Virus record (IMG/VR): IMGVR_UViG_3300006024_000023
Coordinates: 1 to 26,018 of that record
From: a virus
Taxonomy: Duplodnaviria; Caudoviricetes
Length of the DNA stretch: 26,018 nucleotides
Direction: 5' to 3' (one strand)
The notes below the pieces were generated by a model that did not search any database, was not told where the DNA came from, and saw only the letters and a list, made by a program, of their open reading frames with translations. The translations under genes were made by a program, and so were the position numbers. Shown in pieces: positions 1,967 through 9,548 of this stretch. Each line of letters starts with the position of its first letter. Position 1 is the first letter of the stretch.

Positions 1967-1990
1967 GAGGTCTCTTGTGTTGATGAATTA

Positions 1991-2050
1991 AGTATAACGC
2001 GGAATGTGGTATGAAACAACCACTAGTGTACACTTATTCAAGTGGCACAC
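1991..2050 (-). promoter_or_regulatory. early-type promoter: palindrome + TTGTTT-N17-TATACT
   Basis: Minus strand reads GTGTGCCACTT-GAAT-AAGTGTACAC (2050-2026), 6 nt, TTGTTT (2019-2014), 17 nt, TATACT (1996-1991), then 24 nt to ATG 1966. Confidence 0.7.
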
Positions 2051-2439: not shown

Positions 2440-2561
2440 TAAAGTGTCCCATCATCCACAGATTTGTGGTAGAAAGATTTGGAGTCTGCTACCATCATCA
2501 TATCCATTATAAATCGGATCTGAGATGGTGTTAGATCAACTTGGGTAGTCTGTTCAATCAT
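2391..2561 (-). CDS. small hypothetical protein (56 aa, not in ORF track)
   Basis: Translated by hand: MIEQTTQVDLTPSQIRFIMDMMMVADSKSFYHKSVDDGTLYNQLSNCLPSRHTASN*. ATGA coupling to the methyltransferase stop. Confidence 0.65.
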   Translation of the reverse strand: MIEQTTQVDLTPSQIRFIMDMMMVADSKSFYHKSVDDGTLYNQLSNCLPSRHTASN

Positions 2562-3508
2562 AAGTGGTTCAAGATGCTTGTAGACGCTTGTAGAGGGGTC
2601 TCAGGAAGTGTATTAATTCTCTTTTGAATTAAATCACCATAATCCTCATGTAATTCACACCCAATATAATACCTATCGAGTGATTTTGCAACTGTTGCTG
2701 TTGTGCCACTGCCCATGAATGGATCAAGTACAATGTCACCCTTCTCACTACCAGCAAGGATACATGGTTTGATCAGTTCTTCAGGATACGTAGCAAAGTG
2801 TGCTCCCTTGTATGGTTTCTTGTTTACTGTCCAGACAGAGCGTTTATTGCGTTTTGTATATGATTTTGTAAGACCCGAATGCGGTTGGAGTCCTGTTCCT
2901 GGATTGTGGTACTTTCCTTTTGATCTGTCTCTTGTTCCCCAATCTTTTGCTGGTTCTTTGATTGCTTCATTGTCATAGTGGTAATACTTACTCTTACTCA
3001 AGAGAAAGATATACTCATGAGACTTTGTACATCTATCTCTTACACTCTCTGGCATAGGGTTTGGTTTATGCCATATAATATCTTGCCTTAGATACCATCC
3101 ATCCGCACGTAATGCGAATGCAAGCATCCATGGTATACCAATCAGATCCTTATCCTTATATCCTTGGAGTTTGTTGGATCTTCTTGGTGTAGTCTTAGGT
3201 AGGTCTTGTCTGTTGTTAGAGAATGTCTGCTTAGGTATGCACCCATCCTTTCTGTAATTATAGTATGAGTCACCAATGTTCAACCATAGTGTACCATCCT
3301 CCGTAAGTACATTGCGTACCTTACGGAAGACTTGTACCATCTCTTCAACATATTCTTCTGGTGATTGCTCTTGACCTATCTGGTCATCCTCACCACCATA
3401 GTCTCTTAGTCCGTAGTATGGTGGTGATGTGACGCACATCCTTGCACTCTCTGGTAAGAATGCATCAAGTGTATCACGACAGTCTCCAAATAGAATAGTG
3501 TCTTTCAT
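2558..3508 (-). CDS. DNA methyltransferase, N4-cytosine/N6-adenine family (beta-class motif order)
   Basis: Catalytic motif IV TSPPY lies N-terminal to the SAM-binding motif I DPFMGSGTT. Other family motifs are IIWHKPNPMPES, HEYIFLLSK and HFATYP. Confidence 0.93.
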   Translation of the reverse strand: MKDTILFGDCRDTLDAFLPESARMCVTSPPYYGLRDYGGEDDQIGQEQSPEEYVEEMVQVFRKVRNVLTEDGTLWLNIGDSYYNYRKDGCIPKQTFSNNRQDLPKTTPRRSNKLQGYKDKDLIGIPWMLAFALRADGWYLRQDIIWHKPNPMPESVRDRCTKSHEYIFLLSKSKYYHYDNEAIKEPAKDWGTRDRSKGKYHNPGTGLQPHSGLTKSYTKRNKRSVWTVNKKPYKGAHFATYPEELIKPCILAGSEKGDIVLDPFMGSGTTATVAKSLDRYYIGCELHEDYGDLIQKRINTLPETPLQASTSILNHL

Positions 3509-3525
3509 GCTCTAAAAATTGGTGA

Positions 3526-3614
3526 AGGAAAACAAAACTGAGGGTCAGTGCATTACCCCAACGGTCATGTGTCTGCTTCTAAGTCAGACTAGTCAGGAAC
3601 TCGTTTGTTTTCCT
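3526..3614 (-). ncRNA. candidate structured RNA (sRNA or 5' leader), 89 nt, family not recognised
   Basis: It has an 11-bp perfect closing stem AGGAAAACAAA/TTTGTTTTCCT and internal hairpins GTCTG-ACTTAGAAG-CAGAC and GGGT-AATGCACTG-ACCC. It starts 7 nt after a -10 box, in the largest intergenic gap of the window. Confidence 0.65.
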
Positions 3615-3617
3615 GAA

Positions 3618-3679
3618 AGTATAATGACATACTATTGAATATTTGTCAAGGGGTGTGTGACATTACGTAAACTGTCTAC
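3618..3679 (-). promoter_or_regulatory. early-type promoter: palindrome + TTGACA-N17-CATTAT (TGn-extended; overlapping TATACT)
   Basis: GTAGACAGTT-TACG-TAATGTCACA (3679-3656), 6 nt, TTGACA (3649-3644), 17 nt, CATTAT (3626-3621). Confidence 0.7.
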
Positions 3680-4220
3680 CAACACACCACCCAACAATAC
3701 TCTTTCTGATACCTTTAGTTACAGGTTTAACTCTATGACCTAGAGTTGATGGAAATACTATCAATGAACCCGCCTTTGGTTCTAATGCTATTCTATTCCA
3801 TTTCAATTCCATACCATACTGAGGTAAAACAAATTCTAACTCTCCTCCCTCATAATCATCATTCAATAATAATGAGAAGGATAGTTTACGATGGAATTGT
3901 CTCTTTTTATCACCAGCACGTATGTAATCAATATGCCATCCATAATGATCATTCACATGATAGTGTGCATACTGATAAGCGTTATTATGAAATTCATCAT
4001 TCAATTGATACTTGTACACATCATCATTGACAGATTGTACATGATCCCTACAGAATCTTCCAACCCAATCACGCTGATCACGAAAACATATATCAGTAGA
4101 GCGAATGTGTTTTTCTTTATCACCCCACACCCTACCTTTCTTAAATATTGAGGTATCATCAAGATACTCAATTATATTGGGTGGAAGTGTGATATCAATA
4201 GCAGTTGGGTCAACATACAT
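3663..4220 (-). CDS. 2OG-Fe(II) oxygenase (prolyl-4-hydroxylase/PKHD-like)
   Basis: HxD (WHID), RKLSFSLLLNDDYEGGELEF, and a distal His plus 2OG-binding Arg in FPSTLGHRVKPVTKGIRKSIVGW. Confidence 0.92.
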   Translation of the reverse strand: MYVDPTAIDITLPPNIIEYLDDTSIFKKGRVWGDKEKHIRSTDICFRDQRDWVGRFCRDHVQSVNDDVYKYQLNDEFHNNAYQYAHYHVNDHYGWHIDYIRAGDKKRQFHRKLSFSLLLNDDYEGGELEFVLPQYGMELKWNRIALEPKAGSLIVFPSTLGHRVKPVTKGIRKSIVGWCVGRQFT

Positions 4221-5343: not shown

Positions 5344-6468
5344 TTAGTTGTGTTGGTGGGTAGGGTTCATACCATCATGCCATGTTTTAAATGACATTAA
5401 TGGCCAAATGCCATACTCCTTTTTTGCGTGTTCTTTGGAGTTTAGCACGGGATAGTCTGTTCGTAAAGACTGCTCACTATAAATGCGGAAATCCACATCT
5501 GGTTCAAATGGTAGACTCTTGGCATACTGCCAGAATGGAGTATCATAAGCAGATCCGAACTGATAATGCCATAGAACAAATGTCTCAACTCGTTTCATGC
5601 ACCTGCCTACACTATGATCACACATGTATTTTGGTCTATCATTTACAATATGTTGCCATGCATGACAAGCAATATACTTATAGAATGTGCTTGACGTTGC
5701 TTCCAGTGGTTCTAAGAAACAAAATTTATTACCATTAAGTATAGTTCTATCTCCTTTCCACATACTCTTAGCAGCATAATTTCTGAATGTTAGATAATCA
5801 TCAGGAACTACATTAAAGATCTCATGCATATTAAATGTTGCTTCATCCTTAGATGTTATGTTATTATTGTAAAGATACCCATATGATACACTATCATGAT
5901 TTGGTATTACAAATGTCCAACCATCAGGTGTTGCAACACATCTAGTATGTGTTAGATCTGGATCTCTACCACCTTGCTTACATAATAGAACTGCATTCAA
6001 TGGATTGATGAGAGTATTATATTCATTATAATCATTACCAGACCTACCTCTACAATCAAAGATGTAGTCAGCATCAATCTCTGCTTCAGGATCTATTATA
6101 TTCTTCTCAATTACATTCACATACTGTGATTCTCTAACCTTTCTTGATAATTCATGTGTCTGGAAATGCATTGCAACATTATCCATGTAAAACTTATGAA
6201 AAAATTTCTCTTGCTTCTGTCCCCATTTCTCATATAATATACCAGTCTTGATTGTTGCACCAATATCATTATTCCACCAATCTATATTAAGACTAGCAGC
6301 TGCTAATGACAACACATCAGGAGTAGTACCTTGTCCAACTCTCTCCATTGGAGTGTCTGGATCGTAGTACATATCGATGTCAAACAAATTCTGACCGTAG
6401 TATCCAAAATTCAGTGCAGTTATGCATCCAGCATTACCAGCACCTACTATTGCTATTTTCTTCTTCAT
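5344..6468 (-). CDS. flavin-dependent halogenase-like protein (tryptophan halogenase PrnA family, short form)
   Basis: FAD-binding IAIVGAGNAG, VGQGTTP (cf. VGEATIP), ATIKTGILYEKW with the catalytic-Lys position, GWTFVIP (cf. WxWxIP), FLEPLEATS and HY...DTPFW. Confidence 0.88.
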   Translation of the reverse strand: MKKKIAIVGAGNAGCITALNFGYYGQNLFDIDMYYDPDTPMERVGQGTTPDVLSLAAASLNIDWWNNDIGATIKTGILYEKWGQKQEKFFHKFYMDNVAMHFQTHELSRKVRESQYVNVIEKNIIDPEAEIDADYIFDCRGRSGNDYNEYNTLINPLNAVLLCKQGGRDPDLTHTRCVATPDGWTFVIPNHDSVSYGYLYNNNITSKDEATFNMHEIFNVVPDDYLTFRNYAAKSMWKGDRTILNGNKFCFLEPLEATSSTFYKYIACHAWQHIVNDRPKYMCDHSVGRCMKRVETFVLWHYQFGSAYDTPFWQYAKSLPFEPDVDFRIYSEQSLRTDYPVLNSKEHAKKEYGIWPLMSFKTWHDGMNPTHQHN

Positions 6469-8882: not shown

Positions 8883-9548
8883 TTACTTACCTTTGATGTA
8901 CCATCCTGTTACTATGTATTTATCTTGAGTCATGACTGTATTTCCTTTATGTGTATGAGTAAATCCACCAGGCCAAATAACAACAGTACCTGCAGTTGGT
9001 TTGATTCTACGTCTTTGATATAAAAACTCAGTCTCTGCTTCTCCATCTGGCATATCATTTAGATAAATCATCCACACCAATTCTCTTTGAGAATGTGCCA
9101 TGTCAGCATTTTCATGATGCCATAGATGATAACCACCGCCTGGTGGAGTTCGTTGCACCTTAATATCAACAGACGTCAATGCTTGTTTCTTTAATGCCTG
9201 ATACTCGGTTATATAATGGTTAGCACATGATTTGAGAACTTGATTGATTTGTATAACAAGTTCTCTATTTGAATAGTTTAATAGAAATGAAAAATCTTGT
9301 CTGTTAAGAGCACCATTATAAAAATCTTCTGATTTATATACTGTTTCTCCATCAGATAAGTAATCAGTATTTTCATAGTTAACAGTACAACCTATATTTG
9401 AAATCTTCTTAGAGTAATCAATGATACTATCACATAATGGTTTTGGCATGAAATTAGGCCACACACCAATAAAGTCGTCGAATTCGACTTTGGTTATCTT
9501 TGGGTCTAGCATCAATTCAAGTGGTCTATAATCAGGAATTTCAGTCAT
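8883..9548 (-). CDS. 2OG-Fe(II) oxygenase (HxE type)
   Basis: GGGYHLWHHEN, RELVWMIYLND, AETEFLYQ, WPGGFTHTHKGN, KYIVTGW. Confidence 0.92.
   Translation of the reverse strand: MTEIPDYRPLELMLDPKITKVEFDDFIGVWPNFMPKPLCDSIIDYSKKISNIGCTVNYENTDYLSDGETVYKSEDFYNGALNRQDFSFLLNYSNRELVIQINQVLKSCANHYITEYQALKKQALTSVDIKVQRTPPGGGYHLWHHENADMAHSQRELVWMIYLNDMPDGEAETEFLYQRRRIKPTAGTVVIWPGGFTHTHKGNTVMTQDKYIVTGWYIKGK
8917..8923 (-). promoter_or_regulatory. possible T4-like late promoter ATAAATA
   Basis: 39 nt upstream of ATG 8877. It also encodes the conserved D-K-Y of the oxygenase, so it may be coincidental. Confidence 0.35.

Follow-up and report, generated by a model that had tools for sequence, protein, structure and literature searches.

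The window analyzed here, a whole stretch of 26,018 nt, finds its best BLAST database matches in the T4-like phages of Prochlorococcus and Synechococcus, and its long ORFs all lie on the minus strand. Between the genes for a 2OG-Fe(II) oxygenase and an N6/N4 DNA methyltransferase (MTase) is a gap, 3509-3662, at the transition from large tail-fiber-like genes to short hypothetical genes. At 154 nt it is the largest gap between plausible minus-strand ORFs, as an earlier note made from the letters alone had claimed, and its minus strand carries the RNA element of this T4-like cyanophage, running 3614→3521. The MTase gene is a mere downstream neighbor, outside the RNA system. The features of the locus are as follows.

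3663..4220, minus strand: 2OG-Fe(II) oxygenase gene, the upstream neighbor (PF13640, phrog_61)
3621..3649, minus strand: sigma70-type promoter (-35 at 3649-3644, 17-nt spacer, -10 at 3626-3621, predicted start 3614; 10 of 12 consensus matches)
3521..3614, minus strand: whole RNA element of 94 nt, with carrier stem, core, empty cassette slot and UCACC tail (from homologues and the covariance model)
3600..3614, minus strand: 5' strand of carrier stem P1, pairing with 3542-3526 (compensatory change in 5 of 12 pairs, 99% of cells paired)
3592..3597, minus strand: 5' strand of helix A, CCUGAC, with a conserved GUU before it and a conserved UA after it (5 of 6 pairs compensatory)
3571..3589, minus strand: hairpin P2 (GUCUG/CAGAC), loop 3584-3576 (2 of 5 pairs compensatory)
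3582-3581, minus strand: cassette slot, two U's, empty in the window's phage (from the position of inserts in homologues)
3551..3569, minus strand: linker CAUGAC, 3' strand of helix A, GUUGGG (3562-3557), and conserved GUAA; CAUGAC and GUAAUG may pair (P3)
3526..3542, minus strand: 3' strand of carrier stem P1 (from folding and covariation)
3521..3525, minus strand: unpaired conserved 3' tail UCACC (from homologue alignments)
2558..3508, minus strand: N6/N4 DNA methyltransferase gene, the downstream neighbor (PF01555, E=6.6e-59; phrog_67)

As the earlier note had proposed, sigma70-type -35 and -10 boxes are present, with the predicted +1 at 3614 on the first base of the closing stem, and 17 nt separate the element's 3' end, as first drawn, from the MTase ATG at 3508. 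Among the homologue matches listed, each of 86 distinct upstream regions has a -10-like hexamer 3-9 nt ahead of the stem, compared with 372 of 1420 control positions (26%), and 56 of the 86 have a -35 as well; the stem starts at, or no more than 2 nt from, the predicted transcription start. No terminator-like site was found near the element. A plus-strand reading gives a similar fold, yet the promoter, the genes and the G-U pairs favor the minus strand, and this reading was rejected. A GTGTCACA/GTGCCAC-like motif lies ahead of the promoter (window 3650-3670, minus strand) and in many homologues; a similar motif and a second promoter-like stretch occur in the gap before ORF 1565-1966 (1990-2050, minus strand). 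Unrelated upstream genes of homologues (e.g., at L044, L016, L083 and L005) share near-identical C-terminal peptides (...EEVxQxxxNPLLDAL is one). The conserved promoter block overlaps the 3' ends of these genes, which accounts for the likeness and suggests that the block is a recombination junction. The tail-region ORFs also include a tryptophan-halogenase-like gene at 5344-6468 and, besides 3663-4220, a second 2OG-Fe(II) oxygenase-like gene at 8883-9548, the latter judged from its translation only.

With a host-type promoter, the element is likely expressed early. Sequence words of the window stretch recur in five RNA runs, in every case within contigs, and pieces of the element are present in contigs of three RNA runs and one unlabelled run (X1, X2, X3 and X6); the X2 contig continues into the promoter, so that it could derive from DNA. 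That the element is transcribed is what its promoter and its covariation suggest.

In Rfam, nothing in the window reaches the gathering score, in keeping with the earlier claim that the structure is an unrecognized one. Even at E≤10, the segment 3400-3800 gives just two chance matches, with no riboswitch, ribozyme, tRNA or tmRNA; a ToxI match in this segment lies on the opposite strand (E=5.2, 14.7 bits). The wcaG, manA, glnA, PhotoRC-II and abiF models have no match in the window or in sets of 4, 20 and 20 homologue loci (some shared), and in homologue loci the gathering score is reached by tRNAs only. ARAGORN, run on 60 loci, called none of the elements a tRNA or tmRNA. A reading of UCACC as a tRNA-like CCA end was discarded on inspection, the stem register misfitting in GCG-start variants. 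We found no description of the element in the openly accessible literature searched. Fremin et al. (PMC10690425) may, however, have the core among their entries without a name: in the part of that paper drawn on here, 13 automated candidates carry a Prochlorococcus host label, two of them near in length, DNAVirus_3292 (87 nt) and DNAVirus_1540 (78 nt).

BLAST against 50,697 phage records matched 26, of which seven (P-SSM7 twice, S-SSM4 twice, S-SSM6b, AG-345-E02 and AG-345-L05) match the 92-97-nt element alone, at 78-94% identity and with unmatched flanks. Judged by sequence, P-SSM7, S-SSM4, P-SSM2, P-SSM5 and marine contigs all keep the element as a self-contained unit. The family was assembled from pattern scans of viral and metagenome contigs, which gave at least 145 motif matches, at least 71 of them unique; a looser descriptor gave at least 209 matches, with at least 113 unique elements and at least 51 unique cores, from 432 sequences that include many redundant contigs. 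Covariance model R2 matches 3521-3615 at 99.6 bits, its sole match with E<1 in the window. The core is present in one copy per record in the four complete genomes and in the viral contigs with strong matches. Its slot is empty in P-SSM7 and S-SSM4 and filled in P-SSM2 and P-SSM5, whose copies are divergent and have further modules after them; searches of P-HM2 and S-SM2 did not find the element, and in S-SSM7 it is weak. A GTDB pattern scan gave seven matches, none cyanobacterial, which were rejected as chance, as were the pattern matches at L009/L034, L211 and L236; several others (such as L062, L084, L089, L100, L149 and L164) lack promoter and core.

The single-sequence fold is modestly better than chance (z -2.2; 5 of 200 shuffles). 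Since such a fold alone is weak evidence, it is the support of the homologues that settles the element's reality. In 24 insert-free sequences, 98.9% of the cells of P1, helix A, P2 and P3 are paired and 12 of 28 pairs have two-sided changes, counted per sequence and not per event (helix A alone shows many pair types); none of 500 shuffles has as high a compensatory count, and slid controls are paired in 34-49% of cells. All 12 compensatory pairs fall in P1, P2 and helix A, and compensatory changes in these three helices show that selection acts on RNA structure. The 11-bp closing stem of the earlier note (3614-3604 with 3536-3526; pair probability 0.999) and its GUCUG/CAGAC hairpin (0.99) are both supported by covariation; P2 appears in homologues as CUAAG/CUUAG, CCUG/CAGG and CUCUA/UAGAG.

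Two other pairings from that note did not survive. The GGGT/ACCC hairpin is paired in 80% of cells with no compensatory change, a level that 500 of 500 shuffles reach, and it would use bases of helix A. The alternative fold of AGGAA with TTCCT has no compensatory change and one pair broken in 11 of 24 sequences; its ensemble probability is about 5e-6, it is 9 kcal/mol worse than the MFE, and it is fully Watson-Crick in 2 of 70 elements. Absent from the first reading were helix A (3597-3592 with 3562-3557), the UCACC tail (3525-3521) and the slot (3582-3581). Helix A was missed because its probability in the single-sequence ensemble is only 0.007. RNAalifold detected it unprompted, and among the matches listed, motif-selected with no pairing filter, all six positions are paired in 63 of 71 unique sequences, the other 8 having one C-A mismatch; helix-A counts from pairing-filtered sets were left out of the covariation evidence. 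Within the tail, CACC is invariant in 24 of 24 and 31 of 31 aligned sequences, these sets being partly chosen on UCACC itself, and the tail is missing where the core sits in other carriers. Pairing of CAUGAC with GUAAUG as P3 may turn helix A into a pseudoknot. Since P3, with 100% of cells paired, has no two-sided change and loses its outer pairs in divergent members, the pseudoknot is a putative one and the core may be an irregular rod.

Covariation, the lack of an Rfam match and the conserved -10 box thus bear out the central claim of the earlier note, that of an unrecognized structured phage RNA with its own promoter. The element is a real RNA family of ocean cyanobacterial viruses, absent from Rfam, and it has an unusual nested-cassette architecture. 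Among the matches listed, 60 of 113 unique elements have a cassette in the P2-loop slot and 53 have the slot empty; the cassettes, up to 80 nt long, replace the two U's of the loop and fall into 21 clusters, some of them related, and seven clusters each occur on two to five different core subtypes. Cassettes are found outside the core as well. That of cluster 0 is a free module just downstream of the element in 38 loci, and those of clusters 1, 3, 9, 14 and 20 lie outside the core in fewer loci, some of the short matches being chance. Clusters 3 and 9 occur directly behind a -10 box in short stems of their own, or inside a further module that also holds cluster 20. In AG-345-O18, one slot contains two cassettes in tandem. 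As for the carriers, the GGGAAACAAA-type stem encloses unrelated RNA contents in six loci (L076, L080, L099, L129, L159 and L163), the contents of a second carrier (GGCA...UAAGUCC), free or slot-nested, differ from case to case, and the core is also found in unrelated carrier stems. The build is therefore modular at three levels, carrier stem, core and P2-loop cassette, its parts being combined differently from phage to phage. Modules are distributed regardless of order, nesting and downstream gene, and they are probably independent in function as well.

In P-SSM2, about 300 unannotated bases after the MTase gene hold three structured RNA modules, and a second cluster follows about 550 bases on. 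The element is followed by two modules without an Rfam counterpart, at L304:2500-2611 (P-SSM2 NC_006883.2 55980-56090) and L005:4099-4210. One is a long bulged hairpin in the GGCA...UAAGUCC carrier; the other, of about 50 nt, has a covarying inner hairpin and probably an H-type pseudoknot (at least 60 matches, 6 variants). The second cluster, at L304:3160-3430 after the HWDGYP gene (gene 070), is led by a promoter and contains three structured modules, the middle one having the GGUU-helix...helix-GUAA frame common to the core, a covarying 6-bp helix of its own, and the capacity to accept cassettes. No module in 20 loci with module arrays has an Rfam match at the gathering score. At L276:1-75 and L412, where the core is housed in another carrier, a tRNA gene follows it within a few bases.

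The gene that follows the RNA varies. Over 104 distinct contexts among the matches listed, it encodes the HWDGYP protein (T4-GC66, phrog_1987) in 48, some other product in 44 and an MTase in 4, and none was found in 8. MTases are commoner upstream of the RNA's promoter, where they account for 25 of the 73 ORFs scanned (of 92 listed), and CP12 for 9. P-SSM7 has the element after two MTases; in S-SSM4 it lies between a CP12 gene and a tRNA, and the annotation of the stretch examined there includes no MTase. In run X6, a contig joins 3508 to 3669 via 25 other letters, so that the oxygenase-MTase pair also exists without RNA and promoter. The cis-regulatory switch, conceivably SAM-responsive, that the earlier note had offered as one half of its reading fares badly here: the downstream genes are varied, the alternative fold is unconserved and no terminator is present, and an MTase downstream in only 4 of 104 contexts refutes a SAM switch. 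The HWDGYP protein was rejected as an obligatory partner; it offers no family or fold clue, and its gene is 20 kb from the RNA in S-SSM4. This protein (L010:1930-2364 and relatives) has more than 5,600 relatives and no Pfam family, and it is also present in Erwinia, Yersinia, Caulobacter and other phages.

What stays plausible is the other half of the earlier reading, "decoy or antitoxin-like". Our preferred reading, to which we give somewhat less than an even chance, is that early-expressed, stem-protected RNA modules act in trans as decoys for host proteins, and not as an MTase switch. Host RNA polymerase would make the element at the head of the early transcript, and the pairing of its 5' end in the stem would shield the RNA from decay. 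The conserved internal motif of each module would titrate one host RNA-binding factor, candidates being a defense nuclease, a toxin, or an RNA-turnover or ribosome-associated protein, and phages would exchange modules by recombination, as with protein anti-defense genes. Since the slot is empty in the window's phage, only the core motif would act there. Position-independent, nestable, sequence-conserved modules are, we infer, what independent protein ligands should look like. The structure, the discrete unit with unrelated flanks in isolates, the single copy per record, the -10 box in 86 of 86 regions, the variable downstream gene and the mobility of the cassettes all argue for decoys; the patchy distribution and the lack of a host match for core or cassettes in the searches run argue against them. 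A decoy whose target is known usually looks like the partner of that target, and no such resemblance was detected here.

Those searches covered several sets of host sequence. The covariance model found nothing in 151 host-family genomes, nor in five named hosts, and BLAST of two P-SSM2 arrays against 401 host-family genomes gave only 17-41-nt chance-level matches; one P-SSM2 module matched a host ORF over 18-21 nt, likewise at chance level. Within the host family, Abi_2 is above cut-off in 12 of 251 genomes and reverse transcriptases (RTs) are present in 17 of 251. Against 34 host-family AbiF/RT loci, 31 core, cassette and module queries did no better than shuffles, in a comparison of sequence likeness that can miss structural mimicry. 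ToxN was found in 0 of 251 host-family genomes by a search that matched no control either, and the cassettes have no match in the host rRNA operon, RNase P, tmRNA or 6S RNA. Upstream of two host-family AbiF (Abi_2) genes (L533 and L534) is a conserved stretch of about 70 nt with a variable middle and no Rfam match, a candidate AbiF antitoxin RNA.

A more ambitious form of the decoy model, conceivable and on balance unlikely, is a combinatorial arsenal: nestable stems and cores, transcribed from an early promoter, would display at least 20 exchangeable structured cassettes, with a separate host factor titrated by each, and the core would perhaps be captured host 23S rRNA. If so, it would be an RNA counterpart of protein anti-defense islands. 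If the cassettes are decoys, each points to an undiscovered host defense or RNA-binding factor and could be used as bait, and cultured phage-host pairs with empty and filled slots make the decoy idea directly testable. Prochlorococcus myophages are among the most abundant ocean viruses, and P-SSM2 is a model phage. In the literature searched we found no precedent for a natural plug-and-play RNA scaffold with cassettes shuffled among phages.

Since no terminator follows the element, the RNA may simply be an mRNA leader. It would then act in cis at the 5' end of the first early mRNA, stabilizing it or aiding its translation, with the cassettes as tolerated passengers or extra protection. The position of the stem at or within 2 nt of the predicted start fits such a role, and so does the ORF that usually begins 12-300 nt downstream with no terminator between. 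A terminal stem alone suffices for RNA protection, and a leader leaves the conserved inner core unexplained, as it does the near-identical cassettes that move between cores, the tandem and nested cassettes and the multi-module arrays. Moreover, the HWDGYP gene is present in P-HM2 and S-SM2, two phages in which no copy of the RNA was found. We consider a leader rather unlikely.

A specific form of the decoy model, and the one lead from the target searches, has the core derived from, or mimicking, host 23S rRNA, presumably the segment around helix 35, and decoying an rRNA-directed nuclease or modification enzyme. Cores of the P-SSM7 type are colinear with nt 747-818 of the 23S rRNA of Prochlorococcus MIT1012, with scores of 58-63.5. 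The L001 core was beaten by none of 1500 shuffles (maximum 51.5), natural-sequence null maxima for three cores were 43.5-49 (n=122), and 15 of 49 empty-slot cores exceed all 60 of their shuffles. MIT9302 and Synechococcus RCC307 give lower scores, 45.5-51.5, and E. coli, with its best site elsewhere, gives 35.5-47. The scoring cores are, however, related rather than independent, and the target was chosen after the fact; the commonest core subtype has no match, a cassette takes the place of the loop in 60 of 113 elements among the matches listed, and a profile search of the core misses the 23S site. Because the window's core scores 46, inside its null (maximum 47), and the covarying helices A and P2 differ from what we take to be the rRNA's own pairings, we regard a 23S origin as improbable. 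The D1 protein of MIT1012 is identical to that of P-SSM2 over the 299 residues compared. Its 23S rRNA (L567:2247-2318, G001) differs from those of MIT9302 and RCC307 at several positions of an otherwise conserved segment, and some of these MIT1012-specific letters recur in P-SSM7-like cores. An 11-nt match of the empty loop to a 23S loop, presumably that of the GTPase center, was rejected (E=0.077, not above shuffles; this loop is replaced in half of the family).

About as little weight goes to an unrecognized self-cleaving or processing ribozyme that would release cassettes, neighboring modules or tRNAs from the early transcript. The compact covarying core, its invariant junction bases and its variable peripheral hairpin have that look, and the L276 element ends a few bases before a tRNA. 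Yet there is no Rfam ribozyme match, the AGAAG segment varies in divergent members, tRNAs occur in only 4 of 60 ARAGORN-scanned loci and are adjacent in none, and the 53 of 113 elements with empty slots, among the matches listed, have nothing there to release. It is similarly doubtful that these are selfish or nearly neutral structured elements spreading by recombination at shared motifs near a strong promoter. The distribution is patchy, as that would predict, one contig joins oxygenase to MTase without RNA and promoter, and any structured RNA tolerates nested loop insertions; set against this are the compensatory changes in three helices, the single copy per genome and the lack of a reverse transcriptase in 4 of 4 complete carrier genomes. 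Least credible by far is a riboswitch, for SAM or another ligand, controlling the downstream gene: the compact conserved core and the 17 nt to the MTase start in the window's phage suit it, but the MTase is downstream in 4 of 104 contexts, the AGGAA/TTCCT fold is unconserved, no terminator is near the element and no Rfam riboswitch matches at E≤10.

Several known RNAs invite comparison with the trans-acting modules we favor. The cyanophage structured RNA motifs wcaG, manA, PhotoRC-II and glnA are read as cis elements of metabolic genes in the sections of Weinberg 2010 used here (PMC2864571), and S-CREM1 carries a wcaG-manA-abiF cluster according to the passage cited (PMC9964418). Like our element, these are structured noncoding RNAs of T4-like cyanophages found by covariation; they are untested in phage and sometimes clustered. 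Unlike them, the element has no Rfam match to any of them and no gene partner, and it carries exchangeable cassettes. Ocean-VI and GUCCY-hairpin, absent from Rfam and described in the Weinberg 2010 supplement (PMC2864571), differ from the element as far as the relevant part of that supplement goes. RNAC and RNAD of T4 are likewise small RNAs of a T4-type phage without an assigned function; the portion of PMC9697503 consulted classifies them as late RNAs, whereas the host-type promoter of the element points to early expression, and the two are set apart by description only. CfrI of S-PM2 is, in the part of the report cited (PMC2984593), an antisense RNA of about 225 nt over psbA and a homing endonuclease gene; it too is a noncoding RNA of a cyanomyovirus, whereas our element is intergenic and has the same sense as its neighbors.

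The pseudo-ToxI of phage phiTE, as presented in the section of PMC3594212 used here, is a precedent for a phage RNA decoy and thus for our working model, in which the element would likewise act in trans against a host defense. Pseudo-ToxI is a tandem repeat resembling the host antitoxin; the element has no detected resemblance to one and consists of nested modules in one copy per genome, the tandem short-pseudoknot repeats of type III antitoxins being absent from each record. In the UG27 arrays, according to the part of the preprint cited (bioRxiv 10.64898/2026.09.22.753630), several units of 135-167 nt, neighbored by an RT and two accessory genes, serve as templates for cDNA. Our element differs in having a single core, cassettes that also exist on their own and no RT (PF00078 matched in 0 of 4 complete phage genomes carrying the RNA, a search that can miss a very divergent RT). 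It shares with UG27 the plan of phage RNA units with a conserved base, a pseudoknot (in the element a putative one) and a variable central hairpin, the units being gained and lost.
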